Source of the DNA: Patescibacteria group bacterium
GTDB lineage: Bacteria; Patescibacteriota; Patescibacteriia; JAXHNJ01
Direction of reading: 5' to 3'
Length of the DNA: 64,000 bases
NCBI GenBank assembly: GCA_041649715.1
Contig: JBAZMP010000003.1
Location: forward strand, 100,894 to 164,893
Below the pieces are notes generated by a model. It was not told the origin of the DNA and did not search any database. It saw only the letters and a program-made list of their open reading frames with translations. The position numbers and the translations under genes are program-made. This document shows positions 8,891-31,199 of the stretch, in pieces. Every line of letters begins with the position of its first letter. Within the stretch, counting starts at the first letter, position 1.

Positions 8891-9012
8891 GTTTTTATAT
8901 TTATTAATAAGACCCTGTGATATTATTTTAGCACAAATGACACTTATAATCAAGAAAGCTGCGCTTTCTAGATCTGCTTTTTTAAAAAACGGATTTTTGT
9001 TAGAATAAAATC

Positions 9013-11043: not shown

Positions 11044-11100
11044 ATAAAAAGAACTTCCTAAAGGATATTTTCGGCCCAAAGGCATGCTCTAATAATAAAA

Positions 11101-12366
11101 TTAACGGCGGCGGAAATTTCTGTTCCGACCGCGAAAGGACCGGCTGGTTTGATATTGCCTTCCGGTTCGAATTATTTTGGCTCCGCCGCCTATAATCCGG
11201 CGCGGCGGCAAAACCGGCAAAGCGGTAACCGGAATTGTTTTCTTGATAAGCTTTTCAATATACTTAACCGTTCTTAGCTCTTCCCGGCCGACAAAAGAAA
11301 CGGCCCGGCCCGCCCGGCCGGCGCGAGCCGTGCGGCCGATCCGGTGCACGTAATCATCCGGATTATCCGGCAAATCATAGTTGAGGACGATGGAAATATT
11401 GTCCACGTGGATGCCGCGGGCGGCGATATCGGTCGCCACCAGCACGCGGTATTTGCCGGTCTTGAATCCCGCCATCGCGGCTTGTCTTTGAGTCAAAGAC
11501 CGGTTCGAATGAATTTCCGTCGCCGAATGCCCCATCTCCCTGACTTGCGCGGCGATCTTTTTGGCGCCGTGTTTGGTGCGTGAAAAAACCAGGAACGTAC
11601 CGGCATTGTCAGACAATAATTTTTCTAGGAGCTGGACCCGCGCATCCTTGGCCACGATAAATATTTCTTGTTCCACTTCGGCAACGGTCGTGCCGGACGG
11701 CGCCACTTCAATGCGCCAGGGCATTTTCATAAAGCGTGCCGCCATCGCTGAAACCTCCTTAGGCATCGTCGCCGAAAACATCAGCGTCTGGCGATCCTTA
11801 GGGGCGAAGTTTAAAATCTGTCTGATCTGCGGCATAAAACCGATATCGAGCATCCTGTCCGCTTCGTCTATGACTATTATTTTTACTTTTTCCAGAGTGA
11901 GATTTCTTTTTTGCAGATGATCAATTAAGCGCCCCGGGGTAGACACAATGACGTGTGGCTGGCGGCGTAACGCCTGAATCTGCAGATTAGCTGAAGCGCC
12001 GCCGATCAGTACGACGGTGCGCAGACCGAATTTATGCCCGATCTTGTGAAAAACCTCATCCACCTGCAAAGCCAATTCGCGGGTCGGCAGTAAAATCAAT
12101 CCCTGGCCCTTATGCCGACCGAGTATTTGAATCATCGGCACGCCATAAGCGAGTGTTTTGCCCGTGCCGGTCTGGGCGATCCCCACGATATCCCTGCCTT
12201 CTAGCGCGGCCGGGATGCATTGATGCTGAATAGGCGTGGGCAAAGTGAAACGCAGATGCTTTAAAACCTCAAGCAAAGCCGGAGCAATGCCCAGGTCATT
12301 GAAGCTGGAGGGAATTTTATTCGTTTGTGTCATAAAAAAGGGTGACCCGATTTTCCATTGGGTCAT
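11101..12366 (-). CDS. DEAD-box ATP-dependent RNA helicase
   Basis: Motifs AQTGTGKTLAY (I), PTRELA, DEAD (II), SAT (III) and HRIGRTARAGRAG (VI). Start uncertain: the ORF-track start at 12411 is a TTG, so ATG at 12366 or 12333 is more likely. Confidence 0.85.
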   Translation of the reverse strand: MTQWKIGSPFFMTQTNKIPSSFNDLGIAPALLEVLKHLRFTLPTPIQHQCIPAALEGRDIVGIAQTGTGKTLAYGVPMIQILGRHKGQGLILLPTRELALQVDEVFHKIGHKFGLRTVVLIGGASANLQIQALRRQPHVIVSTPGRLIDHLQKRNLTLEKVKIIVIDEADRMLDIGFMPQIRQILNFAPKDRQTLMFSATMPKEVSAMAARFMKMPWRIEVAPSGTTVAEVEQEIFIVAKDARVQLLEKLLSDNAGTFLVFSRTKHGAKKIAAQVREMGHSATEIHSNRSLTQRQAAMAGFKTGKYRVLVATDIAARGIHVDNISIVLNYDLPDNPDDYVHRIGRTARAGRAGRAVSFVGREELRTVKYIEKLIKKTIPVTALPVLPPRRIIGGGAKIIRTGRQYQTSRSFRGRNRNFRRR

Positions 12367-12520
12367 CCTGACACAAAAGATTCGAGTCGTTGGCCGCCTA
12401 AATACGACCAAAATTTATTAATACATTATGTATAACAAAAAAAACCACTTATGTCAAAAAGAGGGAATTAAAATCACCTGACAACAAGTGCTGCCTGGAC
12501 GTGGCACCGGTAAATTGTTT

Positions 12521-12928
12521 CTAAGCGGTTGGTGACGGCTTACTGATGTCTTTCTTCTTTACGCCGACAAGCATCGAACCGACCGCCTGAGCGATAAATA
12601 ACAGATAGGCAACCCAGCTGGCCAGAAAGATGCCCTGCGTGCCGTTCACTAAGAGCATCACCACCATGAACACGGTCGTCATGCCTGACCATAACAGACC
12701 GGCGATAACCGCTTGTTTCCGGCTAACCGGTTTAAGCCACCGACCAAAGGCATAGGAAATAATAATCAAGAAACCGACGACGATGGCCATGCCCAAGGGA
12801 GGCGGGGCGGTCATTTCGGCCCCCTCTTTAACCCCGTAGATAAGAGAAATAATAAAGATGGCGATCATCAATAAGAACCATTGCAATAGGCCGAAGGCAA
12901 AAATTTTAATGATAAATATTTTGTTCAT
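12521..12928 (-). CDS. Hypothetical small membrane protein
   Basis: 135 aa with about 4 TM helices. Confidence 0.45.
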   Translation of the reverse strand: MNKIFIIKIFAFGLLQWFLLMIAIFIISLIYGVKEGAEMTAPPPLGMAIVVGFLIIISYAFGRWLKPVSRKQAVIAGLLWSGMTTVFMVVMLLVNGTQGIFLASWVAYLLFIAQAVGSMLVGVKKKDISKPSPTA

Positions 12929-12974
12929 ATATAAAGGATAGTTTTTGCTCAGGTGGCGTTGCCAACGTTTTAGT

Positions 12975-13049
12975 TGGCAGGGGCGCCTGGATTCGAACCA
13001 GGAATAATGCTTTTGGAGAGCATTGTGATAGCCATTTCACTACACCCCC
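12975..13049 (-). tRNA. tRNA-Trp (anticodon CCA), CCA encoded
   Basis: Minus-strand cloverleaf GGGGGTGTAGTG..ATGCT-CTCCAAA-AGCAT..GGTTCGAATCC..CGCCCCTGCCA. Anticodon loop CUCCAAA. Confidence 0.8.
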
Positions 13050-13354
13050 AGATAATAGATACGGATTATTTCAATTCCTTATGCCCCGTATGCTTACGGC
13101 ACCATCGGCAGTGTTTTTTTAGCTGCAGTTTTTCTTTAACGGTCTTTTTGTTCCTTTTGGAATAATAATTGACGTGTTTGCACACCGTGCATTGGAGTTT
13201 GACGAGATTGTCCTGGGACATGAATTTAAGTTGATTTAAGTTGATTAGTTTATTGAGTTAATTAAGATCATTTTTGACTTGATAAATAGTTGAAATATTT
13301 ATTTAAGCCGACTAGTAATCCTTCATATTCTCGGTCAATTTCTGCAAACGCCTT

Positions 13355-13427
13355 AGCCCACGGTCAGATTCGAACTGACGACCTACTGTTTACAAAACAG
13401 TTGCTCTACCAGCTGAGCTACGTGGGC
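13355..13427 (-). tRNA. tRNA-Thr (anticodon UGU), no encoded CCA
   Basis: GCCCACGTAGCTCAGCTGGTAGAGCAACTGTTTTGTAAACAGTAGGTCGTCAGTTCGAATCTGACCGTGGGCT. Anticodon loop UUUGUAA. Confidence 0.8.
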
Positions 13428-13536
13428 TCGGGCTAAGGCGGGCGGGTCTACCAACTGTCACCCAGAGGGTGATCCGCCTCTGGCGGAAGCTACGTCGGCC
13501 TGTCAGATTTAAGAAAAACGTAATATCCATCCCCAG

Positions 13537-13623
13537 TGGTGGGCAGGGTAGGATTCGAACCTACGAAGCCCGGAGGGCAGCAGATTTACAGTCTGCCCCA
13601 TTTGACCACTTTGGTACCTGCCC
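13537..13623 (-). tRNA. tRNA-Tyr (anticodon GUA), class II long variable arm, CCA encoded
   Basis: GGGCAGG..GCAGA-CTGTAAA-TCTGC-TGCCCTCCGGGC..GTAGGTTCGAATCCTAC-CCTGCCCACCA. Confidence 0.8.
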
Positions 13624-13668
13624 ACCACTGGGGACGAAAAATATTTATTAATTAAACAACATTGGATT

Positions 13669-13697
13669 CGCCGTGTACCAGTAAACGGTACACGGCG
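13669..13697. other. Perfect 11-bp/7-nt-loop hairpin (cgccgtgtacc-agtaaac-ggtacacggcg) between tRNA-Tyr and its partial copy
   Basis: Perfect palindrome with no adjacent U-run. A processing or stability element rather than a canonical terminator. Confidence 0.4.
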
Positions 13698-13722
13698 ACG
13701 TGATCCCTCCAGTGGTTCACGT

Positions 13723-13795
13723 CGAACCTACGAAGCCCGGAGGGCAGCAGATTTACAGTCTGCCCCATTTGACCACTTTGGTACCTGCCCACTAT
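13723..13795 (-). pseudogene. Partial duplicate of tRNA-Tyr (5' end through variable arm; T-arm and 3' acceptor strand replaced)
   Basis: 13723-13791 is identical to 13555-13623 of the intact tRNA-Tyr. The downstream part ('gtgatccctccagtggttcacgt') cannot form a T-arm or acceptor stem. Confidence 0.65.
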
Positions 13796-13889
13796 TGTTT
13801 TCAATAATTGTTTTTAAGTAACTTTTTGAATGCCTTCCCGCCTTTATTAGAATATATACATTATACATTACACATAATACATAATTGAT

Positions 13890-14170
13890 ACAGATTTATG
13901 CCGCCTTTGTCGGCACCCCGGCCGCGGGCGGTGGCAGTCTGTCCATTTACCTGTCCGCCTCGGTTGGAACCGCGGAGCCTGCCCCGAGCTAAGTCAAGGG
14001 GGTACCTGCCCCTAGATTGTCAAAAAGGATGAAGCCCAAAAGCGGATTTGTTACCCTACGGGTGATCTCCCGAAGGGAGATACCGATGATCCTTCGTTTA
14101 CCCTCAGGACAAGCTCTACTCCTTACCCCTCCTTCGCCTACGGCTTCGGAGGGCAGACATGTAGTTGTAA
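13890..14170 (-). other. G+C-rich unassigned, probably structured RNA-like element inside the tRNA cluster
   Basis: About 280 bp of locally high G+C with many short helices (gatctcccgaagggagatc, cggcttcgg, cctgccccgag/cctgcccctag) between two minus-strand tRNAs and co-oriented with them. No convincing ORF. RNase P RNA, tmRNA and SRP RNA signatures are not recognisable by eye. Confidence 0.3.
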
Positions 14171-14183
14171 TTTGTCTGCGGCC

Positions 14184-14259
14184 TGGAGCCGATGGTCGGA
14201 TTTGAACCGACGACCTACTCCTTACCATGGAGTTGCTCTACCAACTGAGCTACATCGGC
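14184..14259 (-). tRNA. tRNA-Thr (anticodon GGU), CCA encoded
   Basis: GCCGATGTAGCTCAGTTGGTAGAGCAACTCCATGGTAAGGAGTAGGTCGTCGGTTCAAATCCGACCATCGGCTCCA. Anticodon loop AUGGUAA. Confidence 0.8.
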
Positions 14260-19703: not shown

Positions 19704-19835
19704 AATTTCGCAAAAAAGAGAGGTTTGATACACAATTCAAGCCCCTTTTTAATAACTACAAAAATTAATAGTTTTATATCTAATTTTTATCAATTATTTC
19801 GAGTGAGGTTATCGCGGCCCAAAAACACTTCTGTC

Positions 19836-19864
19836 TTGACAAATTCCCAAATATGTGCTAGCAT
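19836..19864 (+). promoter_or_regulatory. Strong sigma-70-like promoter TTGACA-17-TGcTAGCAT at the upstream edge of the GC-rich island
   Basis: 'cttgacaaat' then a 17-nt spacer ending in 'tgc', then 'tagcat'. Nearly the same architecture recurs at 25522-25550. Confidence 0.5.
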
Positions 19865-20011
19865 GGGGAGTTAAAATCAAAAATAAAACCTTTTCATTTT
19901 CAACCCCCAAATACGAAAAGGAGTGTAAATTTGGGGAAAAAGTCGTGTTGTTTGACAACCGAATACACTGTTTATCTTATCCCGACACCTCAAGAAAGGA
20001 GTAGGGAGAAT

Positions 20012-20302
20012 GTGAAGACGAAAACACGGGATGCGCCGATCAAAGTCCGGGTCGGGGCCGTGGAACAAAAGGGCGAGCACGGGGTGCCGTTCCTGGTTAC
20101 CTGGCCAACGAGCCCGACTTTGAAAGATTTAGGCAGTATCACGATCGAGCAGACAGCCGAGACCCTGCTAGGTGAACCCCCCTGTACGGGTGGCGAATAC
20201 CTAGTGGCTTTTGGTGTCTACCAGAAGGAAAAGGGTTGGCGTGCTCAAAAAGCCCGCCGATTCCGTCCGGATGATTTCAGAAATCCTGACATCATCCAGT
20301 AA
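20012..20302 (+). CDS. Hypothetical small protein (first gene of GC-rich island)
   Basis: GTG start preceded by 'aaggag' about 10 nt upstream. About 96 aa (VKTKTRDAPIKVRVGAVEQKGEHGVPFLVTW..). G+C-rich. Confidence 0.45.
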   Translation: MKTKTRDAPIKVRVGAVEQKGEHGVPFLVTWPTSPTLKDLGSITIEQTAETLLGEPPCTGGEYLVAFGVYQKEKGWRAQKARRFRPDDFRNPDIIQ

Positions 20303-20356
20303 AAGCATCGAGCATGTAGAACATGAGCATGTAGCACTCAGAAAGGATCGGCTACA

Positions 20357-21067
20357 ATGGCCAAGAAATCAATAAGGGGTTTGTTTGTCAAGACTGACGG
20401 ACAAGCTCCCAGACCCGGGTCCCCTTCCGGAAGTGCTTGGGCTCCGCCGGCTGGAACAGGTTTTGTCCCCGGCTCAGCTCCCAAGTCATATCTGGATACC
20501 GGCCCCCGGCGCGGTCAATCAAGCGGGAACGCGACCGCGGTAACTTCTACCGCCGTCGACACGCAGTTTACGGCCGAGATCGAGGAACAGCTCCGGACCG
20601 TGCCGACTCCCAAGGGTTTCGACATGTTCCTGGGCGCCCTCGAAAACTTGACCCAGTTCATCCCCGACGAAGGAAACCGCTTCAAGGCGGCGATGGTAAC
20701 GGCGGCCGCCAGCGGGCTGACGCCGGCACAAATCGTCGAGGCCCTGGAAGCGCAGCTGGCAGCCCTGGAAAAAATCCTGGCGACCTTCCAGAGCGATCTG
20801 GAAACGGAAGCCAACGAGTCGATCGCCGAACGCGAGTCGCAGCTAAAAACGCTGGCGACCCAGATCGGCGACCTCCAGCGGCAGCTGGCCGACATACAGA
20901 GAGAAATGCAGAAACTCTCTGACGATCAGAGAAGACTACAGGATGAAAACGCCCAGGTCGAGCAGCGTAAAAGCTTGGTAACCAACCGTTACTCAAGCGC
21001 GCACGCGGCCAAACTGGGCAAAACCCAAGAGCTGCTTTCAAAGGTACAGCGGTACCTCGGGCAGTAG
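20357..21067 (+). CDS. Hypothetical protein: Pro/Gly/Ser-rich disordered N-terminus plus helical/coiled-coil C-terminal half
   Basis: 236 aa. RBS 'aggatcgg' upstream. The C-terminal half has heptad-like text (LEAQLAALEKILATFQSDLE..LQRQLADIQREMQKLSDDQRRLQDENAQVEQ). Confidence 0.55.
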   Translation: MAKKSIRGLFVKTDGQAPRPGSPSGSAWAPPAGTGFVPGSAPKSYLDTGPRRGQSSGNATAVTSTAVDTQFTAEIEEQLRTVPTPKGFDMFLGALENLTQFIPDEGNRFKAAMVTAAASGLTPAQIVEALEAQLAALEKILATFQSDLETEANESIAERESQLKTLATQIGDLQRQLADIQREMQKLSDDQRRLQDENAQVEQRKSLVTNRYSSAHAAKLGKTQELLSKVQRYLGQ

Positions 21068-21081
21068 GAAAGAGGAACGAA

Positions 21082-22185
21082 ATGGTAGAGACACCCTCTT
21101 TGCCGCAGCTCAAGGGCTTCGGCAATGACATGCTTTCAAGCAAGGAGAAGACAATCGGAGCGATTGTCACTATCCTGCTGATTGGCGCCGCGCTGCTCGG
21201 GCTTAATGCCCTTCTTCCCGGCATCAATCATTTTCTCTCGGGTCTGCTGGCCGCGGTCGGCAAGCTCGTGATGCTTGCCATCTCCCTGGCCGGCCTAGCC
21301 TTGTTCCTGGCCGTCGCCATGAACAAGCGGACCCACACGCTTCTCAAGCTGGGGTTCTACTGGCTGGCGCGCAAGACCACGATGGCCTTCGTCAGGTACG
21401 GCCCGACCACCATCATTGAGATCTACAACGATCACCTGACCGCAAAAGCTCAGAAGTTCGGCGAGAAAAAGATGGTCGTGGATTCCAAGCGGGAGGTCGT
21501 GGCGCGCACCATTGAAGAGAACCAGGCTTCGATCAACGAGAGCCAGGCGAACGCCAAAACTCTCAAATCCCGGCACTTCGACGACAAACAGAGAAGGTGG
21601 GATTCGATCGAACACAAGAATCTCTTCATGGAGTACAGCTCGAACATCAGCTTCCGCGAGGCCTCCAACGTGAATCTGCGCAAGCAGCTTATCAGGCTGG
21701 AATACTATCTCCAGATCCTGGAGAAGTTCCAGCAGGCGTTCAATCACCGCCGTAACGTGATCAAGAACTTCTGCAAGATCCTAAACACGGAGTACGAAGC
21801 CATGAAGGCGGCCGCGGAGGGAACTCACGAACTCTCGGCGCTCTTCGGCACCGACGACCTAAAGCAGGTCTTCGACATGACCATCGACTTCATGAGAGAG
21901 CGGATCGCTTTCTTCACGAGCGAGGTCGACACCTTTATGAGCGAGAACCTGCCGGTCGTCACCGAGCTCGACCTGCAGAACGAAGTGGCGGAAGACCAGC
22001 TTCTCGCCAGACTGACGGACATGGACAAGAAAGCCGATCACCTGATCGACCAGGCCGCCCAAGATGAGGTGGCCCTGACCGATATCCGGGGATTGGCAAC
22101 GTTGGTCAAGTCCAACCAGGCAACCGCGGCCACCCAAACGACGCCCTCTTCAACAAGAAGGCATCGCTACCTGGGCGGAAACTAA
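21082..22185 (+). CDS. Hypothetical membrane protein (2-3 N-terminal TM helices, long cytoplasmic helical domain)
   Basis: 367 aa. TM segments IGAIVTILLIGAALLGL / LSGLLAAVGKLVMLAISLAGLALFLAV. The remainder is predicted helical. Starts 15 bp after the previous stop, so it is probably co-transcribed. Confidence 0.55.
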   Translation: MVETPSLPQLKGFGNDMLSSKEKTIGAIVTILLIGAALLGLNALLPGINHFLSGLLAAVGKLVMLAISLAGLALFLAVAMNKRTHTLLKLGFYWLARKTTMAFVRYGPTTIIEIYNDHLTAKAQKFGEKKMVVDSKREVVARTIEENQASINESQANAKTLKSRHFDDKQRRWDSIEHKNLFMEYSSNISFREASNVNLRKQLIRLEYYLQILEKFQQAFNHRRNVIKNFCKILNTEYEAMKAAAEGTHELSALFGTDDLKQVFDMTIDFMRERIAFFTSEVDTFMSENLPVVTELDLQNEVAEDQLLARLTDMDKKADHLIDQAAQDEVALTDIRGLATLVKSNQATAATQTTPSSTRRHRYLGGN

Positions 22186-22238
22186 TAAGTCTCTCATTTT
22201 CCCAATTCTCAACCAGAAAAGTCAGTAAAGGAGTAGTC

Positions 22239-23717
22239 ATGAAAAACCTTACTCTTCTCTCGAAGGTCCTGATCGGAGTCGTGATCCTCGCAATCGTCGG
22301 TTCCCTCCTGTGGTTCAGCGGCATCCTCAACAAGGAGCGGCCGCTGCGGGTCAGCGTGGTCACCTGGGGTGGCTATGCCGGGGGACAGCTTTGGAACGAA
22401 GGTTTCAAAGCCAGCGAGGAAAGCCGCTTCCTTAAGGAATACGGCGTTCCCGTCGAGTTCGTCCTGAACGATGATATCGAAAGCAGCTTGAAGGCTTGGG
22501 AAGCCGGCGAAGTTGACGCTCACTGGTGGACCGCCGACGTATTTTCGACGGTCGCTGATGAGCTAGCCGCTTACAATCCCAAGGTCTTCATGCAGGCTGA
22601 CTGGTCCAGAGGCGGCGACGCCATCGTGGTCGTTCGCGGCATCAATTCCGTGAACGATCTGCGAGGCCGGAAAATCGCCGTCGCTTTCAAGACCCCCAGT
22701 CACAGCTTTCTGCTTTGGGCCCTTGAATCCGCGGGCATGACCCCGAACGACGTCCAGATCGTGGAAGTCGCTTCCGCCATCGACGCGGCGGCGGCATTCA
22801 AAGCTGGACAAGTCGATGCGGCTGTTGTTTGGGCACCGGATGATCAAGGCTGTGTCGATGCGGTACCCGGCTCAACAATCTTGGCCAACACCAAGGATGC
22901 CAAGTACATCATCAGCGACGTCTTCTTCGCGAAAGAAGAAGTCCTCGTCGCCCGCCATGACGATTTTGTTTCCCTGGCGGAAGGCTGGCTCAAAGGCAGC
23001 GCGTTGATCAACACCGATCCGACGGCCAAGAACAGAGCGGCTGAAATCCTCTCAACTGGATTGAGCGTATCGGTAGATTACGCTCTCGGAGCCATCAACA
23101 ATGTTCGCCTCACCACTCTGGGAGACAACATCAACTTCTTCAACATCAATGGCAACTACCAGGGCGTCAAGGGCGAAGACATTTATACCAAGACGGGAAG
23201 AATGTACCAAAAGTACGGCATCATCAAGGGAAGCTTTCCGGATTGGCGCTCTGTCGTCGATCTTTCAATCGTGAAGGAAGTCATCGAAAGAGGCAAGCTG
23301 ACGGGCAATATGAACGCGGCTGAAGCGGCCACGACCTTCGAGCGGCCGACCGAAAAGATGGCCTCCGCCCCGGCCATGGCGACCAAACGCGTGACGATCA
23401 ACTTCGCCACCAACGTTTACGCCTTGGACGAAAACGCCATGCGCATCCTTGACCTGCAAGCGGCTGACGCTCTGCGGTTCATGGGCGGCGTACGCGTCCG
23501 TATCACTGGCAACACCGATAATGTCGGCGATTACCAGATGAACATGAACCTGTCCCAGAAGCGGGCCGAAGCGGTCGCCGATTACCTGGCGAGAACCTAC
23601 AAGTTCGACCGCAACCGGTTCGTCATCGTGGGCAAGGGTCCGGACAATCCGGTCGCCTCAAATGAGACGCCGGACGGCCGGGCAAAGAACCGTCGCACGG
23701 ATATCGAACTCTTCTAG
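22239..23717 (+). CDS. Membrane-anchored NMT1/SsuA-type ABC substrate-binding protein fused to a C-terminal OmpA-like domain
   Basis: N-terminal anchor (LLSKVLIGVVILAIVGSLLWF). Central domain resembles nitrate/sulfonate/taurine-type binding proteins. The C-terminus carries an OmpA-C-like segment (NTDNVGDYQMNMNLSQKRAEAVADYL..GKGPDNPVASNETPDGRAKNRRTDIELF). Confidence 0.6.
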   Translation: MKNLTLLSKVLIGVVILAIVGSLLWFSGILNKERPLRVSVVTWGGYAGGQLWNEGFKASEESRFLKEYGVPVEFVLNDDIESSLKAWEAGEVDAHWWTADVFSTVADELAAYNPKVFMQADWSRGGDAIVVVRGINSVNDLRGRKIAVAFKTPSHSFLLWALESAGMTPNDVQIVEVASAIDAAAAFKAGQVDAAVVWAPDDQGCVDAVPGSTILANTKDAKYIISDVFFAKEEVLVARHDDFVSLAEGWLKGSALINTDPTAKNRAAEILSTGLSVSVDYALGAINNVRLTTLGDNINFFNINGNYQGVKGEDIYTKTGRMYQKYGIIKGSFPDWRSVVDLSIVKEVIERGKLTGNMNAAEAATTFERPTEKMASAPAMATKRVTINFATNVYALDENAMRILDLQAADALRFMGGVRVRITGNTDNVGDYQMNMNLSQKRAEAVADYLARTYKFDRNRFVIVGKGPDNPVASNETPDGRAKNRRTDIELF

Positions 23718-23814
23718 GGCCACGGCCTGAAAGATAGTTTGGTATCATACCGCCAAAGGGGCGGGAGTCAACTGATTCCCGCCCCTCTCATCAACCTCCT
23801 GGGAAGGAGAACGA

Positions 23815-24612
23815 ATGCATAACAATGGAGACCTGTTTTGCCTCCGAGGCAAACTGCCGCCGAAAACTCGAATGGTAATCGAGCTCGCCGGCCTGGTCAT
23901 CATTCTCCTTGTCTGGTGGGCGGTCGTCGCGACTGGTCTGGTCAAGCCGAAAATGCTGCCTTCACCGATTTCCGTCGTTACCTGCTTCGGTGAACTGGTG
24001 AAGCAAAATCACTTGGTCGGAAACCTGCTCTTCTCGTTGATGCTCAACATCCTGGGGTATATTGAGGCCATCCTGATCGCTGTACCGCTTGGTTTTCTGA
24101 TCGGCCTCCAGCCTATCCCGCGAGCCCTGAGTGAAAGATACATCACCGCCGGACGGTTCCTGCCGCTTTCGGCCGTGGTCGGTCTGTTCATTATGTGGTT
24201 CGGGATGTACACCAACATGAAAGTGCAGTTTCTGAGCTTAGGCATCGTTGTCTATCTCCTGCCGATGGTCATCCAGAGAGTCGACGAGGTCGATCAGATC
24301 TATTTCGACACCGTCAAGACTCTGGGCGCCAGCAAATGGCAGGCCGTGACGAGCGTTTTTATCCCGGGTGCGCTCTCCAAGATCTCTGACGACATCCGGG
24401 TCATCGTCGCCATAAGTTGGACCTATATCATCATCGCTGAGGTGGTGAACAGGACCCAAGGCGGCATCGGAGCGCTGTGTTACGGCGTCAGTCGCGCTAG
24501 CCGTCCGGACAAAGTATTCGCCATTTTGGCTATAATCATCCTGATCGGGATCGTCCAGGACAAATTCTTTCTTTTCCTGGACAAGAAACTCCTCAAGCAC
24601 AAGTACGTCTGA
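23815..24612 (+). CDS. ABC transporter permease (NitT/TauT family, SsuC/TauC-like)
   Basis: Six TM helices. Region resembling the EAA loop (..LGASKWQAVTSVFIPGALSKISDDIRV..). RBS 'ggaaggag' upstream. Confidence 0.7.
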   Translation: MHNNGDLFCLRGKLPPKTRMVIELAGLVIILLVWWAVVATGLVKPKMLPSPISVVTCFGELVKQNHLVGNLLFSLMLNILGYIEAILIAVPLGFLIGLQPIPRALSERYITAGRFLPLSAVVGLFIMWFGMYTNMKVQFLSLGIVVYLLPMVIQRVDEVDQIYFDTVKTLGASKWQAVTSVFIPGALSKISDDIRVIVAISWTYIIIAEVVNRTQGGIGALCYGVSRASRPDKVFAILAIIILIGIVQDKFFLFLDKKLLKHKYV

Positions 24613-24630
24613 ACAAAGGAGGTTTGAAAG

Positions 24631-25446
24631 ATGCCGACGCTACTCCCAGTCGTCTTCGAAAATACAAACCTCCCGGACGTCATCGAGCTGCGCAACATTT
24701 GCCAGACGTACGACGGAGGAAAGGCTTGGGTCTTACAGTATGTCAACCTCCTGATCGAGGACATCCCCGACCAGGGACAGTTCGTGGTCATACTCGGACC
24801 CTCAGGCTGCGGCAAATCAACGCTTCTGAAATATATTGCCGGCCTGCAAAAACCGACCAGTGGGGAAGTGCTGATCAGCGGAAAGGTCCGTACCGATGAC
24901 GTCGTCGTCGGCATGGTCTTCCAGCAGTACTCCTCCCTGCCCTGGTTCACGGTACTTGAGAACGTCATGCTGGGGCTAAGGTTTCAGAACGTGCCGGAGA
25001 AGGAAGCCCGGGAAAAAGCGATGCAAATGCTCGAAGTCGTCGGACTGGCCTGCGAGGCGAACAAATTCGCCAAAAGCACCCAGCTTTCCGGCGGCCAGAT
25101 GCAGCGCGTCGCCATCGCCCGCAGCTTGATCTCCAACCCCGGCATTATCCTGATGGACGAGCCGTTCGGCGCCCTGGACATCAACACCAGGCACCAGATG
25201 CAGCTCCTCCTCTGCGATATCTGGGAAAAGCTGCAGTCAACCATCATCTTCGTCACCCATGATATCAACGAAGCCGTGTTCCTGGCTGACGATATCTATG
25301 TGATGACGAAGAACCCCGGTTACATCTGCAAGCACTGGATAATTGACCTGCCCAAGCATCGTGACCGGTCAACCAAGCGTGACCCGCGGTTCATCGAACT
25401 CGCCAACGAGATCGATGATTACATGCAGAACTTACGCATCAAATAG
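24631..25446 (+). CDS. ABC transporter ATP-binding protein (NitT/TauT family)
   Basis: Walker A GPSGCGKST, signature LSGGQMQRVAIARSL, Walker B ILMDEPFGALD, H-loop VTHD. Confidence 0.85.
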   Translation: MPTLLPVVFENTNLPDVIELRNICQTYDGGKAWVLQYVNLLIEDIPDQGQFVVILGPSGCGKSTLLKYIAGLQKPTSGEVLISGKVRTDDVVVGMVFQQYSSLPWFTVLENVMLGLRFQNVPEKEAREKAMQMLEVVGLACEANKFAKSTQLSGGQMQRVAIARSLISNPGIILMDEPFGALDINTRHQMQLLLCDIWEKLQSTIIFVTHDINEAVFLADDIYVMTKNPGYICKHWIIDLPKHRDRSTKRDPRFIELANEIDDYMQNLRIK

Positions 25447-25468
25447 CTCATTTTTCATTCGCACATAA

Positions 25469-25500
25469 GGCTGACCCCTCAAAAGGTCAGCCTTTTTCTT
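25469..25500 (+). terminator. Rho-independent terminator after the ABC ATPase gene
   Basis: Stem ggctgacc/ggtcagcc followed by 'tttttctttt'. Confidence 0.6.
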
Positions 25501-25521
25501 TTGCCCAAATTCCTAAAATCC

Positions 25522-25550
25522 TTGACAAATAAATAATTTCGTGCTAATAT
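25522..25550 (+). promoter_or_regulatory. Strong sigma-70-like promoter TTGACA-17-TGcTAATAT for the AAA+ ATPase gene
   Basis: 'cttgacaaat'..'gtgctaatatg'. Same architecture as 19836-19864 and 33648-33676. Confidence 0.5.
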
Positions 25551-25623
25551 GTTGGGTTAATTTGCACCTTGTAATTTTGATATTTTTCACAGAGGCATTG
25601 AAAAAAAGAAAGGCAGGCACAGA

Positions 25624-27480
25624 GTGAAAGATGGTATAAAAAAGCAGCCGTTATCGCACGGAGAAGACGATTTTGAAAGCAGCGGTATTCCCGGTCTCGA
25701 CGACGCGGTCAAATCACTGGATAACATTCCCAAAATCCTGGGCCGCAGACGAGAAATGACGCGGAAAACGGAAGGTCATCTTCGCAAAGAAATGGCCGAA
25801 ACCGGCGAAACAGAGGAAAATCCTCTTCAGCCGGCCCTGGTTCGCGCCATGATCACCGCGGGCAAGCTCGCCCGTCATCTCGAGTCACAGCGGGAAAAAC
25901 CCGGCTATTACGGCGTGGTTTTTTCCCGACTGGCAGCAATGACCGATCCGGAAAAGTTCGATTACGGCAAGATTCAGCCGGGCACCAAGGTCAAAATCCT
26001 CACCAACGAAAACCAGCCGGAATTAATGGGGCAAGTGGGCTACACAGCCAACGAACCCGATTCGGACGGTCTTGTCATGGTGCTTTTCGATGAAGGCGAA
26101 TTCGGCCATTTCCTGGCTGTGCCGCCGGACGAAAAGCAACCGAGGGAGATCGAAATTGTCCCCGGCCAAGACCGAGTCATCGTCCTTTTCGAAGGACGCT
26201 TCATCGAGCTGGCTTCTCCGGAAGGAATGACCCTTTCCAGCGGCCAGGTGGTCAAGCTGGATCTGAAAACCAACCAGATCCTGGATATCGTCAGCCTAGA
26301 ACTGCCGGGCGAGATCGCCACGGTAAAATGTATCTTGGGCGGCCGCGTCCAAATCGACTTCCACGGTACCGATAAAATCGTGGCGGCCGGCGACCTGACC
26401 AAGACCTTAGAGCCCGGCAATCAGGTGATCTTAGACTCAACCAACCAGCTGATCACTGGCAACCTCGGCGACATGGATGTTTCCTACCGCTACAACCGCC
26501 CGCCGGCCATCACCTGGGATGATATCGGCGGACAGACCGCAGCCAAAGCCATACTCCAAGAGATGATTGAGGCGCGCTTCGATCATCCGGCCGCTTTTGA
26601 AAGGTTTCACAAGAAACCCCCCAAGGGCCTGCTTCTGCTCGGCCCCACCGGCTGCGGCAAGACGATGTTGGCCGAAGCCATGGCCTATTCGCTTTCGAAG
26701 CGCTTCGGTGAAACCGCCATGCGTTCCGGCTTTTTCCTGGTCAAGGGACCGGAGATTCTGCGCTCGCTCGTCGGCGAACAGGAAGCTATCATGCGCCACA
26801 TCTTCGTCCTGGCAGACAAGCACTTCGCCAAATTCGGCTTCCCCGCCATCATCTTCATCGATGAATGCGAAGGCATCTTGAAAAAGCGGGGCACGGGCAC
26901 CAGCGGCGACTACTTCGAAACGCTGGTGCAAACCTTCTTGGCCCTGATGAACGACACCAAGGCCATCGTCGTACTGGCGACAAATAGGCCGGATATGCTC
27001 GACCCGGCGGTGGTCCGCCACAAGCGCATCGACCGCAAGATTCCGGTTCGTCGTCCGGATCGGCCGGCCTCCGAGGAAATCTTCAGAATCTATCTGAAAG
27101 ATCTCCCTCTCTCCGAGGGCTTGACCGGCGAGACACTGGCCAAACTGGTGACAACCGAGCTTTTCTCGGACTGCTACGGCATGTACAAACTCATTGTCCA
27201 GACCGAAAACGGAACAGAAGAGAAAATCTTTGGCCTAGCGCAGGTCATCAACGGCGCCATGATCGCCGGGATAGTAGATGAGGCCACCTCGGCCGCCGTC
27301 AACCGGCAGATCAAAGACGGTAAGGAAACCAGTCTGACCGCAGATGACCTAAAAGAAGCCCTGAGCAGAGTCTATCAGGGCGAACTCCTGACCGATCACA
27401 CCGAAGACCAGAAAGAATTCGGGGAAAACCTGACCGGCAAGGTCCTGGAAGCCCACAAGCTCTTTGTGGGCCGCAAATAG
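25624..27480 (+). CDS. ARC/Mpa-family (proteasome-associated-ATPase-like) AAA+ unfoldase; no C-terminal GQYL-type proteasome-docking tail
   Basis: Predicted GTG start. N-terminal short helix, then a beta-rich inter-domain region, then an AAA module: ITWDDIGG, Walker A LLLGPTGCGKT, Walker B IIFIDECEG. ARC/Mpa-like stretches (FFLVKGPEILRSLVGEQE.., KKRGTGTSGDYFETLVQTFL, ATNRPDMLDPAVVRHKRIDRKIPVRRPD) are matched against the ARC/Mpa family from memory. The protein ends ..LFVGRK. Confidence 0.75.
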   Translation: MKDGIKKQPLSHGEDDFESSGIPGLDDAVKSLDNIPKILGRRREMTRKTEGHLRKEMAETGETEENPLQPALVRAMITAGKLARHLESQREKPGYYGVVFSRLAAMTDPEKFDYGKIQPGTKVKILTNENQPELMGQVGYTANEPDSDGLVMVLFDEGEFGHFLAVPPDEKQPREIEIVPGQDRVIVLFEGRFIELASPEGMTLSSGQVVKLDLKTNQILDIVSLELPGEIATVKCILGGRVQIDFHGTDKIVAAGDLTKTLEPGNQVILDSTNQLITGNLGDMDVSYRYNRPPAITWDDIGGQTAAKAILQEMIEARFDHPAAFERFHKKPPKGLLLLGPTGCGKTMLAEAMAYSLSKRFGETAMRSGFFLVKGPEILRSLVGEQEAIMRHIFVLADKHFAKFGFPAIIFIDECEGILKKRGTGTSGDYFETLVQTFLALMNDTKAIVVLATNRPDMLDPAVVRHKRIDRKIPVRRPDRPASEEIFRIYLKDLPLSEGLTGETLAKLVTTELFSDCYGMYKLIVQTENGTEEKIFGLAQVINGAMIAGIVDEATSAAVNRQIKDGKETSLTADDLKEALSRVYQGELLTDHTEDQKEFGENLTGKVLEAHKLFVGRK

Positions 27481-27503
27481 CCTTTGAACCTTATAACAAC
27501 ATT

Positions 27504-27537
27504 ACACTCCGGGAGAAATCTCGGAGTGTTTTTTTAT
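27504..27537 (+). terminator. Rho-independent terminator after the AAA+ ATPase gene (downstream boundary of the GC-rich island)
   Basis: acactccg-(10 nt)-cggagtgt followed by 'ttttttt'. Confidence 0.6.
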
Positions 27538-27550: not shown

Positions 27551-28249
27551 TTAATATGTTGGCGCTATGGGTAAAACATAGTCATCTTCATGTATCAGAT
27601 GCATGTTTTCAGTAATATAGGAATAATCAGAATCTTCATATTTTACATCAATTAAAAATCGACATAAATAATATCCAAATAAAACCTCGTCATTGCCCAT
27701 TGACTCGCAGTTGGCAATCTTAACTCCTTTTCTATCGTAATAATTAATACCGCCATCAAGGCAACCGATATAGGGAAACATACTAAATGGAGCATCGCAT
27801 ATTTCCGCATATATCCGGCCGTATCTTTTAGTATTCCAGGAAACGATTGGCCAATTGTCATAGTGCTCTCTATTAATGATGTTATTAATAACTGTCATAT
27901 CTACCCTGTCATTTTCGGGATTCTTTAAGGGTTTTTGGGTGAAAAGAAAAGGCGTGCCATATAATATTAAAATCGAAATAATTATAAGTATAAGGGCTGA
28001 TAAAACATTCTTTCTATTAATTAGTGAGATAAGACAGGCAAAAATATATAATGCGATTGCATAGATGCTATAAAATAAAAATAATATGTCAACGGTAATG
28101 CTAGATTCAAGATATTGAAATAGCGAAACGTATATATTTACCTCAAAAAAATCAAAAAAGAATAAATACTCAATAACGGTGACAACGATTAATCCCAAAA
28201 GGATTAATATCTTCTTTTTGGTCGGTTTTAAGTGTTTTAAAAATCGCAT
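27551..28249 (-). CDS. Hypothetical membrane protein in a very AT-rich segment
   Basis: 232 aa. Three N-terminal TM helices and a Cys-containing extracytoplasmic domain. The segment is noticeably more A+T-rich than its neighbours. Confidence 0.45.
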   Translation of the reverse strand: MRFLKHLKPTKKKILILLGLIVVTVIEYLFFFDFFEVNIYVSLFQYLESSITVDILFLFYSIYAIALYIFACLISLINRKNVLSALILIIISILILYGTPFLFTQKPLKNPENDRVDMTVINNIINREHYDNWPIVSWNTKRYGRIYAEICDAPFSMFPYIGCLDGGINYYDRKGVKIANCESMGNDEVLFGYYLCRFLIDVKYEDSDYSYITENMHLIHEDDYVLPIAPTY

Positions 28250-28268: not shown

Positions 28269-29399
28269 CTACCACTCCCATTCGCGTCCTTCCGGTATGA
28301 CCTCAACCCAGGTCTGACCGCGGTTGAACTCTATTTCCTGTCCGCTAGAATCATAAAAAATAGTGCGGTCGGTCCGCTCCGGTTTTTTCCAGGTGCCTTC
28401 GACCGCAAGGCCATCCCGCAAGACAAAAGCCTTACCCTCACCATGAGTACTTAAACCAAGCCTGCCCTTTTCGCCCAGATACTCCTCCGGCGGGACAATT
28501 TGAACGATAATATTCTTAGCCTTCAATTCCTGCTTATTATTGGCATCCACTTGCACTTGATCCGCGTTATATCTTAAATATAAATTTTCCTCTTTGATGT
28601 ATTTCCACTCCACTTCGTAGGTATAAGAGGAAAATTTAACTTTATAAAACTTTTGGTCTTCGCCCCTATCAGCCAGAACCGCATCGTCTTTAAAAAGCCA
28701 CATCCTCGTGGTTGATTGCTTTTCTAAAAGTCCCTTGTCGCGCAAGGCATAAACGAGCTTCTCCCCGGAAGTGAAAAGATTGTGCGGGGCAAAGAGGGTG
28801 TGGTCCCGCCAAAAATAGACCGCGTCCCTGGATAGGGCATTTAAATCATTGGTGTCATAATCGCGGATATTGCCTAAGGCGGCCGGCGAACCGCCGGCGT
28901 GAGCGTACAAAGCGGCGTATTCATAAGCCCAGTCCAAATAATAGGGGCGGGCCGATCTTACCGGACCAATAACGGGGGCGGTTGAACCGCCGGTAAATAA
29001 AACCAGGAAACGAGTCGCGCCGCCTTCCGCTAAAGTTTCGTAAATAATCGATGCCTGGCTAAGGCCGGCTTGCGGCCGCACGGACAGCAGATTCTCAATC
29101 ATCACTCCGACCGGCCATAGATTGGCGGCCGCCGCGTCCTTTACTTTCTGGCCGTCAAACCGACGGTAATATTCCTCCGGCTTAAGGACAACAGTCATCG
29201 GAGGGGTATCGTTTTTAACCTTGTCATGCGCCAAAACCGGCAAGATATCGAAACCATTTAAAAATATTGAAAGGCTGAAGAACACCCCGGCAAAAACAAA
29301 CAAACCGACCACTATGAAAAGACGAGCCTTCAAATCAAAAAGAGGGCTGACTTTTTTCTTTGTTAAAATCTTATTGTTCTTTTTGTTTTTGTTTTTCAT
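28269..29399 (-). CDS. DUF3048 domain protein (YerB-like), membrane-anchored
   Basis: N-terminal TM, then ..ENLLSVRPQAGLSQASIIYETLAEGGATRFLVLF.. typical of DUF3048. Paralogous to the next gene. Confidence 0.65.
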   Translation of the reverse strand: MKNKNKKNNKILTKKKVSPLFDLKARLFIVVGLFVFAGVFFSLSIFLNGFDILPVLAHDKVKNDTPPMTVVLKPEEYYRRFDGQKVKDAAAANLWPVGVMIENLLSVRPQAGLSQASIIYETLAEGGATRFLVLFTGGSTAPVIGPVRSARPYYLDWAYEYAALYAHAGGSPAALGNIRDYDTNDLNALSRDAVYFWRDHTLFAPHNLFTSGEKLVYALRDKGLLEKQSTTRMWLFKDDAVLADRGEDQKFYKVKFSSYTYEVEWKYIKEENLYLRYNADQVQVDANNKQELKAKNIIVQIVPPEEYLGEKGRLGLSTHGEGKAFVLRDGLAVEGTWKKPERTDRTIFYDSSGQEIEFNRGQTWVEVIPEGREWEW

Positions 29400-29416: not shown

Positions 29417-30499
29417 CTAGTTATAAGTAACGGTCCGGTCATCCGGCACCACTTGAATCCAAGTCTGTCCCGCGTTGAATTCTATCTCTTTGCCCGTCTC
29501 GTCGTAGAACAGGGTCCTTTGGTTCCGACCTTCCTTTTTCCAGGTGGCGGCTGTCGCCTTCCCGTCCTGAAAAATGACCGCCTGCCCTTCGCCGATCGTT
29601 ACCATAGAAAGCCGGCCTTCCTCGATGACCGAGGTCTTGACATACTGAACCACGACATTTTTGGCGGCCATCTGTTCGTTTTTTTGATTGACGAACGGCT
29701 CGCCGCCCTGCGCCCTCAAATAGACGTTTTTCTCCCGGTCATATGTATATTCCACCTTATAGGAGAAACTGGAATAATCGATAGCGATGTTCCTTTGTTC
29801 GGTCGGCCGACTGCCCAGGGCCGCCTCTTCCTTAAATTGGTAGCCCTCATAGTTACCTTCCGCGGGCGCTTTTTTATCCCGTAGAGCAAAGATCAAAAGA
29901 TCGCTGGAAGTGAAAACATTGTGGGGCGCCGCAATTTTTTTGTCTCGCCAGAAATAACGGCTGTCATAGAACTGGTCTAGATTAAACACGTCGTAAGTTG
30001 AAATCAAAGACATAGCCAGGGGGCTGCCGCCGACATGACCATAAAGAGCGTTATATTCCTTCACCCAGTCTAAAAAGTACGGCCGGGCCGAGCGGACGGG
30101 ACCGATTTTGGCTATCGATGAAGTTAAATTATAAACGGCCATAAAACGGGTAATCCCCCCTTCGGCTAAAGCCTCGTAGACCAGATTCGCGTTCTCCAAA
30201 CCCGCTTGGGGCCTGACCGTCACCAAATTTTCAATCATTACGGCCACGGGGTATAATTGGCGGTTTTCCCTCACATCATAAACTCCGTCAATCACCCGCC
30301 TGACCTGGTCTTCTTTATTGTTGACAATTGAGCCGTTAGAATTGTCTTTTCCCTGGCGGCCGAAAATAAAATACCCGAGCAGACTGACGGCTACGAGCAA
30401 AGCACCGGTAATACTAATAAGCAGCCATTTCTTGCTTTTTTTGACCGTCGCCAGATATTTTTCTTTTTCTCCTTCAATTTTTATCTTTGTCTCACCCAT
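29417..30499 (-). CDS. DUF3048 domain protein (paralogue), membrane-anchored
   Basis: ..ENLVTVRPQAGLENANLVYEALAEGGITRFMAVY... Start set at MGETKIK. The K/R-rich upstream extension in the ORF track is the rplY 3' end read in another frame. Confidence 0.6.
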   Translation of the reverse strand: MGETKIKIEGEKEKYLATVKKSKKWLLISITGALLVAVSLLGYFIFGRQGKDNSNGSIVNNKEDQVRRVIDGVYDVRENRQLYPVAVMIENLVTVRPQAGLENANLVYEALAEGGITRFMAVYNLTSSIAKIGPVRSARPYFLDWVKEYNALYGHVGGSPLAMSLISTYDVFNLDQFYDSRYFWRDKKIAAPHNVFTSSDLLIFALRDKKAPAEGNYEGYQFKEEAALGSRPTEQRNIAIDYSSFSYKVEYTYDREKNVYLRAQGGEPFVNQKNEQMAAKNVVVQYVKTSVIEEGRLSMVTIGEGQAVIFQDGKATAATWKKEGRNQRTLFYDETGKEIEFNAGQTWIQVVPDDRTVTYN

Positions 30500-31199
30500 T
30501 TTTTTCTTCCTTAGTTTTTGGCGCCGCCGGCTCATTCTTTTTTTCCTCGCCTTCTTCCTCTTCCTTCTTCTCTTTTTCGACCTTCTCCACTTCTTCAACT
30601 TTTTCTTCCGGTTTTTCCTCCAGGGCTTTTAATTCTTCTTCGCTTCTGGGTGGTATGACTTTGGCCACCGCTTCCCCGCTCTGGTCCAAAACTTCGATAT
30701 TGGCCGGGATTTTTAAATCGCGGACGTAGATAATATCTTCAAAAGTCTTAAGACGGCTCAAATCCACTTCTATCTCATGAACCAGGTCGGCCGGCAAACA
30801 AGTGATCTTAAGACGGTCTAAACTTTTGACCAAAACGCCGGACAAACCCTTAACGGCTGGCGATTCGCCGACAAAATTCAAAGCGACTTCCGTGGTAATC
30901 TTTTCGGTCATTTTTACCTGGTGAAAATCCGCATGTATCATCTGGTCACTCTTGGAGTCAAATTGGATCGCCTGGATCAGCACCTTTATCGGCTTTTTTT
31001 CGGCGATAATCAGATCTACTAGGCTTGATTCTCCGGCTTTGGCAAAAACTTTTTTTAGATCAAAATAGTTGACGGCTAAAGAAAGCGGCTTAGTATCATG
31101 GCCGTAAACCACGGCCGGCACCATATTTTCTTTTCGCAATTTATTATTTTGTTTGCCCTTTGCTTCGCGGATTTTCGCTTTTAGCGTTATAGTTTCCAT
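30492..31199 (-). CDS. rplY: 50S ribosomal protein L25 (general stress protein Ctc form, acidic/lysine-rich C-terminal tail)
   Basis: METITLKAKIREAKGKQNNKLRKENMVPAVVYGH.. matches the L25/Ctc N-domain. Low-complexity EK-rich tail. Confidence 0.8.
   Translation of the reverse strand: METITLKAKIREAKGKQNNKLRKENMVPAVVYGHDTKPLSLAVNYFDLKKVFAKAGESSLVDLIIAEKKPIKVLIQAIQFDSKSDQMIHADFHQVKMTEKITTEVALNFVGESPAVKGLSGVLVKSLDRLKITCLPADLVHEIEVDLSRLKTFEDIIYVRDLKIPANIEVLDQSGEAVAKVIPPRSEEELKALEEKPEEKVEEVEKVEKEKKEEEEGEEKKNEPAAPKTKEEKNG

Follow-up and report, generated by a model that had tools for sequence, protein, structure and literature searches.

What does a compact, G+C-rich block of seven genes do in the genome of a Patescibacteria group bacterium, and do its genes belong together? 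The block occupies 19.8–27.5 kb of a 64,000-nt stretch of contig JBAZMP010000003.1 (assembly GCA_041649715.1, positions 100,894 to 164,893 of the forward strand), hereafter the window, from a lineage of the Candidate Phyla Radiation (CPR). All seven genes are intact, lie in the same orientation and encode, in order, a 96-aa protein, a 236-aa coiled-coil protein, a 367-aa membrane-anchored helical protein, a solute-binding protein (SBP) fused to an OmpA-like domain (SBP-OmpA), an ABC importer permease, an ABC ATPase and an AAA+ ATPase related to the ARC/Mpa unfoldases. An earlier note, written from the letters of the DNA, had described these genes as a possibly foreign island with its own promoters and terminators and as a candidate module of no described type, to which the unfoldase belonged. 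The coordinates and domains of the seven genes were confirmed, but the view of the module has to change. Here, we find that the five genes from the coiled-coil protein to the ABC ATPase recur as a cassette across bacterial phyla and in huge-phage-sized viral contigs. On balance we think it probable that the island is a horizontally acquired copy of this widespread envelope cassette, in which a PspA/ESCRT-III-like pair of helical proteins and a wall-tethered ABC unit would serve envelope and membrane maintenance and remodeling, with the AAA+ protein as a disassembly or recycling factor.

Operons made of these parts are already in the literature. Popp et al. 2024 (mSystems 9:e00847-23, PMC11237479) list operons with PspA, a transmembrane (TM) protein bearing a diverged Snf7 domain, a signal-anchored SBP (PBPB) joined to OmpA, a TM permease, an ABC ATPase and a classical-clade AAA+ protein, with OGG56892.1 of Candidatus Handelsmanbacteria as an example in their Table S3. 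From comparative genomics, with no experiment reported, they proposed ATP-dependent membrane remodeling linked to solute transport, a view that we favor as well. All six kinds of gene are present, co-directional and intact at 20357–27480 of the window, and the two parts lists, compared by description, are the same. The earlier view that no such operon type had been described is therefore not supported, and the window locus is a variant of an operon type that has been catalogued computationally and is experimentally untested. It is a distinct variant: the Snf7-like gene of the published example follows the ABC ATPase gene, whereas its counterpart in the window precedes the SBP-OmpA gene; the published AAA+ protein has two AAA domains, the N-terminal copy being inactive, whereas that of the window, closest to ARC/Mpa, has only one AAA domain, preceded by an OB-like region; and the window adds the 96-aa protein and lies in a CPR genome. 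Neither ‘phage genome’ nor ‘Patescibacteria’ occurs in the main text of PMC11237479.

Results

The foreign character of the island is borne out by its composition, which we compared with the rest of the 64-kb window as the background. G+C content is 0.51–0.58 in the 1-kb intervals from 20001 to 27000, against approximately 0.38–0.48 on both sides. At third codon positions (GC3) the seven island genes have values of 0.61–0.80 (mean 0.715), compared with a mean of 0.537 and a maximum of 0.685 for the 51 other genes (Mann–Whitney p = 1.8e-5), and the tetranucleotide distance to the rest of the window, taken in 4-kb intervals, reaches z = 8.4–10.2 inside the island and at most 2.6 elsewhere. Expression-linked codon bias is an unlikely cause, because the ribosomal-protein and translation-factor genes of the window do not have high GC3. 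A similar shift is seen in the complete Campbellbacteria genome CP064977 (locus L004), in which the cassette has a GC3 of 0.72–0.81 versus 0.31–0.52 in its flanks. Judged by composition, the island is foreign, self-contained and apparently horizontally acquired.

The island also has signals of its own, as previously proposed, in the form of two related promoter-like sites and two hairpins. Site P1 (19836..19864, + strand; TTGACA, 17 nt, TGnTAGCAT) stands before a six-gene unit and site P2 (25522..25550, + strand) before the AAA+ gene, each with 10 of 12 matches and an extended -10. A 40-nt repeat with 70% identity covers both promoters (19835–19874 and 25521–25560; CTTGACAAAT...GTGCTA..AT...GTTAA), TTGACAAAT has only three occurrences in the window, and the P1/P2 motif is kept 5' of the corresponding genes in loci L003 and L006. 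The shared motif points to common regulation of the cassette and the AAA+ gene. The six-gene unit ends in a terminator-like hairpin at 25467..25494 (+ strand; 10 pairs, 6 of them G–C, followed by a T tract), and a second hairpin at 27504..27529 (+ strand; 11 pairs, 6 of them G–C, followed by a T7 tract) ends both the AAA+ unit and the island.

The core of the cassette comprises five genes in fixed order, encoding the coiled-coil protein, the membrane-anchored helical-hairpin protein, SBP-OmpA, the permease and the ABC ATPase. Every homolog of the 367-aa protein with a readable contig has the coiled-coil gene directly 5' and genes for an OmpA-containing SBP, a permease and an ABC ATPase 3', and among CPR loci the order is conserved in L003, L004, L006, L007, L009, L021, L033 and L095. 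Scanning one genome per GTDB species with an SBP-OmpA alignment gave at least 564 confirmed relatives, and the best 80 of these, which have an SBP-OmpA identity of 47–57% over the full length, provide the neighborhood counts for genomic loci, read with family hidden Markov models (HMMs). These 80 are mostly from Bacteroidota (Saprospiraceae, Lewinella, Neolewinella, Flavilitoribacter nigricans DSM 23189, Sphingobacteriales, Chitinophagales and Bacteroidales), and the others are from Fibrobacteria, Spirochaetia, Caldithrix, a Thiotrichaceae metagenome-assembled genome (MAG), Saccharibacteria, Paceibacterota and one MAG labeled Nanoarchaeota. Coiled-coil protein, membrane protein and SBP-OmpA follow each other in approximately 65 of the 80 loci, with the permease and ABC ATPase genes directly next in approximately 40.

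The proposed tie between the uncharacterized proteins and the transporter thus holds well beyond the window, and the loci with fewer genes indicate where it is tightest. In Flavilitoribacter the trio stands alone and is followed by holA and trp genes, and the invariant core therefore consists of the two helical proteins and the wall-tethered SBP. In L028 the trio persists with the permease and ATPase genes elsewhere, which ties SBP-OmpA more closely to its helical neighbors than to transport. An SBP-OmpA gene without an adjacent permease or ATPase gene is also seen in many loci of Saprospiraceae and Lewinella. The MAG labeled Nanoarchaeota (L062, JAUSIT010000016.1) carries a full cassette at 7621–13170, including the small protein, and this occurrence in a DPANN-labeled MAG reflects either transfer between domains or a mistake in binning or labeling. 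The nearest relatives of the window proteins are found on other CPR contigs and on Bacteroidota chromosomes. A rough neighbor-joining tree of SBP-OmpA, effectively unrooted, without resampling support and giving no direction of transfer, places the window clade with Saccharibacteria and Paceibacterota, beside Bacteroidota, with the branches of Lak phages and a 735-kb phage basal.

The point most worth following goes beyond the earlier claims and concerns viruses, in which the complete five-gene core is present on contigs of huge-phage size. A scan of IMG/VR with SBP-OmpA returned 46 distinct viral contigs, most of them 100–550 kb long; the canonical gene order of the cassette is seen in all 46, and the ATPase gene is part of it in 45. 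Using family member P0045 as the tblastn query, we found the 367-aa family in 15/15 Lak megaphage records (approximately 540 kb); the jumbo phage RsoM2USA of Ralstonia (344 kb) and phage LR756501/LR756503, of 735 kb, also carry it. The 367-aa protein of the window, used as the query against phages, gave no match. Lak-B5 and LR756501 contain the complete five-gene cassette in the same order, with SBP-OmpA proteins scoring 288 and 312 bits against that of the window. In RsoM2USA, the coiled-coil protein is gp55, the membrane protein gp54 and an NMT1_3 binding protein gp52, beside a Ro60/TROVE gene. As a separate observation, the cassette lies directly 3' of a Ro60/TROVE-vWA gene both in RsoM2USA (L012, 6345–11221) and in L011 (6903–12800), and in RsoM2USA a 2H-phosphoesterase-like gene lies between the two.

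Bacillus phage G (497 kb), which is cultured and is the largest cultured phage in the collection, has a rearranged version at gp243–gp250 (L101, 1950–9035), with a permease, an ABC ATPase, the coiled-coil-like gp246, gp247 with a TM-plus-helical layout, gp248 and two SBP-OmpA paralogs. Neither gp246 nor gp247 was matched by the family HMMs, Pfam or the PDB, and the two are candidate homologs of the cassette proteins from their position, length and motifs. We found no report of the cassette in huge phages in the literature searched, where its phage distribution appears to be unreported; a 2021 comparative overview of jumbo phages names neither OmpA nor PspA nor Snf7, and the term ABC appears there solely for the ATPase fold of other systems.

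The small protein that heads the island (20012..20302, + strand) has a GTG start. A mechanically called open reading frame (ORF) of 123 aa begins at TTG 19931, but the alignment of homologs favors the GTG at 20012 and hence 96 aa. Its signature is HGP...GS[IV]TF...VW...GWRA..AR.FRP, and homologs head the cassette in L003 (two copies), L004, L006, L007, L033 and L062, with none found in the 46 viral loci. It has no match in Pfam, NCBIfam, PHROG, PADLOC or the PDB. Proteins encoded upstream of AAA+ genes in L096 and L100 were compared with it and are unrelated.

The 236-aa protein (20357..21067, + strand) consists of an N-terminal MxxKxLFxK motif, a disordered P/G/S-rich linker, an IPDExxRFKAA segment that looks invariant in the alignment and a C-terminal coiled coil. 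Searches of Pfam and PADLOC gave generic coiled-coil families only. An HMM of its family identifies the gene directly 5' of the membrane protein gene in most cassette loci, including those of Lak-B5, the 735-kb phage and RsoM2USA. PHROGs has no family for the 96-aa, 236-aa or 367-aa protein.

The 367-aa protein (21082..22185, + strand) is annotated by NCBI as a hypothetical protein. It begins with a conserved peptide, which is followed by two TM helices, a long alpha-hairpin and, after this, three more helices. Word-based searching of 5.8 billion proteins gave five matches, and a profile search without a word index gave 541 cluster representatives at E <= 1e-3, nearly all of 300–390 aa. A confident AlphaFold2 model built from a 102-member alignment (pLDDT 81.8) has a two-helix TM hairpin, a long helical hairpin formed by residues 108–165 and 176–248, with a small beta turn carrying an invariant Trp at its tip, and three further helices. 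This modeled topology fits that of PspA/Vipp1/ESCRT-III proteins. Foldseek aligned the model with several Vipp1 chains at a probability of 0.92–0.98, in a list that has no match at E <= 0.001. The window protein itself has no Pfam match; across the family, PspA_IM30 is the commonest one (10/102 members, best E 4e-5), with every other family found in at most two members, and Vipp1 aligns with the hairpin of the family in the same register at E 0.14.

With hhalign, the family profile was compared with PspA of E. coli (its sequence confirmed at 100% identity), with a narrow alignment of enterobacterial PspA proteins (all of at least 86% identity, so without gain in sensitivity) and with human CHMP4B, and all probabilities were low. 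The ‘DPIgi..Y...L’ segment of the family falls on ‘EDPQKLVRLMIQEM’ at the start of PspA helix alpha1, with a probability of only 3–4%. The acidic helix EDQLLARLTDMDK (21988–22026, + strand; residues 303–315) resembles the MIM1 consensus (D/E)xxLxxRLxxL(K/R) and was aligned over 20 residues with the alpha5 region of CHMP4B at 22%, a short match. The Arg of the MIM1-like motif is present in the window clade, P0006 and P0007 and missing in several other members (P0005, P0008 and P0009). The case for PspA/ESCRT-III homology of the helical proteins depends on these weak but consistent signals and on a published profile analysis of an operon with the same parts; the 367-aa protein is a candidate PspA/ESCRT-III (Snf7)-like protein, in our reading a probable one. 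The arrangement is also reminiscent of the Psp and Lia systems (PspABC with PspF; LiaIH), which combine a PspA-type helical protein with a small membrane anchor in an envelope-stress context; LiaI anchoring LiaH would correspond to the TM hairpin that the 367-aa protein has joined to its helical domain. However, genes for PspB, PspC, PspF, LiaF or Toastrack are missing from the locus, its anchor is fused to the helical protein, and it is coupled to an ABC transporter and OmpA.

By family assignment, the transporter is an ABC importer of the NitT/TauT type. SBP-OmpA (492 aa; 22239..23717, + strand) is a TM-anchored binding protein of the NMT1/SsuA/TauA type with a C-terminal OmpA-like peptidoglycan-binding domain (Pfam OmpA 1.3e-17, 64.4 bits versus a cutoff of 27.2; NMT1 1e-10; also NMT1_2 and Phosphonate-bd). 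The OmpA motifs TDxxG...N..LS..RA and NRR are present as GNTDNVGDYQMNMNLSQKRAEAV and AKNRRTD, the NCBIfam models SsuA_fam and urea SBP match below their cutoffs, and PHROG 25518, which is given no function, covers the fusion over its full length (4e-41). The permease (265 aa; 23815..24612, + strand; BPD_transp_1 2e-13) is TauC/SsuC/SaoP-like, with NCBIfam matches to SaoP (2e-31) and TauC (5e-26) that are both below cutoff. The ABC ATPase (271 aa; 24631..25446, + strand; ABC_tran 3.6e-30) is TauB-like, matches the taurine ABC ATPase model at 2.4e-63, again below cutoff, and has intact Walker A (GPSGCGKS), signature (LSGGQ), Walker B (ILMDEP) and H-loop (VTHD) motifs. The SBP fold and the permease and ATPase families are those of TauABC, SsuABC, ThiXYZ and NrtABCD (NitT/TauT, TC 3.A.1.16/17), but the SBP differs from theirs in being TM-anchored and OmpA-fused, with a gene that is invariably linked to the two helical-protein genes, and all models for these systems score below their equivalog cutoffs.

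The last gene of the island encodes an AAA+ protein of 618 aa (25624..27480, + strand) with an N-terminal helical segment, a beta-rich OB-like region, one classical AAA domain (Pfam AAA 7.5e-26, residues 336–476) and a C-terminal helical domain. Its GC3 of 0.70 is of the composition common to the island, and its Walker A, Walker B, sensor-1 and arginine residues are kept. Of the earlier label, an ARC/Mpa-type unfoldase, the kinship stands: the best NCBIfam match and nearest named family is TIGR03689 (pup_AAA, the actinobacterial proteasome ATPase; 5.8e-71, residues 201–584), which starts approximately 95 residues ahead of the AAA domain and reaches into the OB2 region, Mpa chain 5kwa aligns at 6.6e-47 over residues 182–568, and two stretches fit the OB pattern of PAN and ARC when the alignment is read by eye. 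Equivalog status does not stand, given that the TIGR03689 score is 239.7 bits versus an equivalog cutoff of 504.75 and that the C-terminus (...HKLFVGRK) is not of the GQYL type; a penultimate Tyr, as in GQYL/HbYX-like ends, occurs in 0/14 aligned relatives. Pore loop 1 reads SLVG in the window clade, in contrast to the aromatic-hydrophobic-Gly pattern of ARC/Mpa, and [YW]-V/I/L-G in most relatives. Taken by themselves, the first 294 residues are not AAA-like by Pfam and gave no PDB match in a sequence search. By the tests of score and C-terminus, the protein does not qualify as a proteasome ATPase.

The genomic partners of the AAA+ protein, unlike those of ARC/Mpa, are envelope genes. The AAA+ gene adjoins the cassette in four distinct loci, downstream in the window, L003 and L006 and upstream in L095 (37% identity). 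In L003 (11178–15251) it is followed by a second copy of the 96-aa type, a 297-aa protein, YqiJ_N and a 685-aa Band_7/flotillin protein; in L095 (1113–2574) it is preceded by LemA and a TPM-domain protein on the other strand. YqiJ/flotillin and LemA/TPM are named as envelope-stress partners by Popp et al. 2024 (PMC11237479). An analogous block in a Bacteroidales MAG (L097, JBAVOD010000164.1, 252–11549) reads OmpA, VWA, OmpA, a 247-aa protein, TelA, NMT1 SBP, permease, ABC ATPase and ARC-like AAA+, so that a TelA-family protein replaces the two helical proteins; the closing AAA+ relative is 40% identical. No Pup or proteasome family was found in the 21-kb gene table at the window locus or in the neighborhoods of eight AAA+ relatives.

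A further gene recurs 3' of AAA+ relatives, namely that of an acidic helical mini-protein of 55–69 aa with the motif E[IV]..VL..[IL]D.AIE.A (L096, 11822–12031; L097, 11552–11719; L098, 11853–12020; L100, 11704–11895). Two of the four end in CxC[WG], and in L096 and L100 the next gene encodes a membrane protein of the DUF1360 family. A Pup-like identity was ruled out, as the mini-proteins have no GGQ or GGE C-terminus, and the window has no gene of this type.

Discussion

In the mechanism that we infer for the cassette, the core joins a coiled-coil protein, either soluble or peripheral, to a helical-hairpin protein anchored in the membrane and an ABC transporter of the NitT/TauT type, whose SBP would have its N-terminus in the membrane and its C-terminal OmpA domain tied to peptidoglycan. 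The two helical proteins may assemble on the cytoplasmic face of the membrane at this wall-tethered transporter and stabilize or reshape the membrane, while the transporter would provide a solute or an ATP-driven conformational signal. In the CPR lineage the core would have gained the small protein at its head and, under a related promoter, a separately transcribed ARC-like OB-plus-AAA+ unfoldase, the ring of which could disassemble or recycle the helical polymer, as Vps4 does for ESCRT-III. By inference, the pair would resemble ESCRT-III with Vps4 (archaeal CdvB/CdvC, eukaryotic CHMP/Vps4) in placing a helical hairpin with C-terminal helices at the membrane beside a classical-clade AAA+ hexamer, and helix EDQLLARLTDMDK recalls the ESCRT-III alpha5/MIM1 element. 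In contrast to ESCRT-III and Vps4, the AAA+ protein of the window lacks an MIT domain, two TM helices anchor the helical protein, and an ABC transporter with an OmpA domain, integral to the cassette, has no ESCRT counterpart; homology to ESCRT-III is statistically unproven here.

Several findings weigh against this account. The AAA+ gene is absent within 10 kb of the cassette in 80/80 genomic and 46/46 viral loci, has its own promoter and terminator, and has relatives (34–43% identity) without the cassette in L096, L098 and L100; in GCA_035620375.1 (Paceibacterota) the ATPase and the cassette are on different contigs. The window protein may not share a family with the published divergent Snf7, no NCBIfam transporter model reaches its equivalog cutoff and hence no substrate can be named, and a search of the island borders revealed no tRNA gene and no integrase, only short AT-rich repeats that are probably due to chance. 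The earlier note had made the unfoldase part of the module and had looked to co-location with ARC-like ATPases elsewhere; such neighbors exist in the window, L003, L006 and L095 and nowhere else among the loci scanned. The ARC-like AAA+ protein is thus a lineage-specific accessory and not a defining component, although a functional link to the cassette is probable.

If the helical genes were bystanders, the locus would encode an ordinary NitT/TauT nutrient importer for a sulfonate, nitrate, bicarbonate or pyrimidine-precursor-like solute, with OmpA holding the SBP at a monoderm wall, the helical proteins acting as scaffolds or regulators and the AAA+ protein as a general quality-control unfoldase that lies downstream by chance. 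We consider this unlikely, even though the transporter parts are canonical, intact and like those of TauABC, SsuABC and SaoAP, and the AAA+ gene is a separate transcription unit that is usually unlinked to the cassette. The many Saprospiraceae and Lewinella SBP-OmpA genes without adjacent permease and ATPase genes also fit it. Chance neighbors, however, would not be expected to hold their place directly 5' of SBP-OmpA across phyla and huge phages, as the helical genes do, the trio persists in L028 where the permease and ATPase are elsewhere, and the AAA+ gene recurs beside NMT1-type transporter cassettes in three different arrangements. A reading as a degradation module, in which the AAA+ protein is a genuine ARC/Mpa orthologue and delivers substrates to a 20S proteasome whose genes lie elsewhere in the genome, seems to us very improbable. 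It would explain why TIGR03689 is the best NCBIfam match, why Mpa structures match the OB2-plus-AAA region and why JGI labels the AAA+ relatives ‘proteasome-associated ATPase’, but the score is under half of the equivalog cutoff, the family alignment lacks the penultimate Tyr, the N-terminal part alone finds no PDB structure and the AAA+ neighborhoods examined hold no proteasome or Pup family.

The viral loci raise a further alternative, in which the cassette is a conflict module mainly of huge phages that protects or remodels the host envelope in the course of long infections or excludes competitors, and the CPR copy was captured, possibly for defense or tolerance. Every one of the 46 viral contigs with SBP-OmpA carries the whole cassette, the Lak phages, LR756501, phage G and RsoM2USA add to them, PHROG 25518 covers the fusion, the island is foreign in two CPR genomes, and the phage branches are basal in the rough tree. 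Against this, no phage structural, integrase or replication gene lies beside the island, the closest relatives are cellular, as described above, and cellular genomes often carry the cassette (at least 564 matches). A defense role, which the earlier note had raised, found no specific support, and PADLOC gave only partial generic matches, to coiled-coil proteins (LmuB and JetC), MotB-type OmpA (ZorB) and P-loop/AAA proteins (IetA, TRIP13 and mad3). We regard an origin of this kind as rather improbable.

We therefore retain the envelope-maintenance cassette as our reading of the island, which we take to be a real and functionally coherent block. A bolder form of it, offered as speculation and to which we would assign a low probability, is that the cassette is a self-contained machine for membrane remodeling or repair, consisting of an ESCRT-III/PspA-type polymer and a wall-tethered ABC motor, that huge phages use to keep or reshape the host envelope during long infections and that moves among phages, Bacteroidota and CPR; in the window lineage, an ARC-type OB-ring unfoldase might then have taken the place of Vps4 as the ATPase that disassembles the polymer, and the ESCRT-III and AAA+ partnership would have been invented independently. 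If the helical proteins are indeed ESCRT-III/PspA relatives that work with a transporter and, in places, an unfoldase, ATP-driven membrane remodeling would extend to the CPR, whose minimal genomes have few known envelope-maintenance systems, and to the largest phages, in which no such function has been assigned. The ARC-like ATPase family that pipelines label ‘proteasome-associated ATPase’ also gains a non-proteasomal context. The published prediction is directly testable, as the cassette is frequent and its carriers include the cultured Flavilitoribacter nigricans DSM 23189, Neolewinella species, Bacillus phage G and Ralstonia phage RsoM2USA.

Surroundings of the island

Upstream, the island adjoins prfA-prmC. 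Directly 3' of it, on the opposite strand, lies an ORF of 232 aa (27551–28249, - strand) with a hydrophobic N-terminus, a GC of 0.31 and a GC3 of 0.31, without a match in Pfam, NCBIfam or PADLOC; as a compositional outlier of opposite sign to the island, it may be a second foreign gene. Next come two tandem DUF3048 paralogs (28269–29399 and 29417–30598, both - strand). In the close relative L003, where the cassette differs in place and orientation from the window, the same DUF3048 genes (249–2478) adjoin the opposite end of the cassette, which implies an inversion or an independent insertion. In L009, the cassette sits between ppdK and a rhomboid gene.

Elsewhere in the window, a cluster of tRNA genes for Trp, Thr, Tyr and Thr lies at 12975–14259 (- strand) and does not adjoin the island. 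A second, milder G+C-rich stretch at 6–8 kb (GC 0.54–0.57, tetranucleotide z 2.6) contains the gene of a 1004-aa NHL/FG-GAP repeat protein (5939–8953, - strand).

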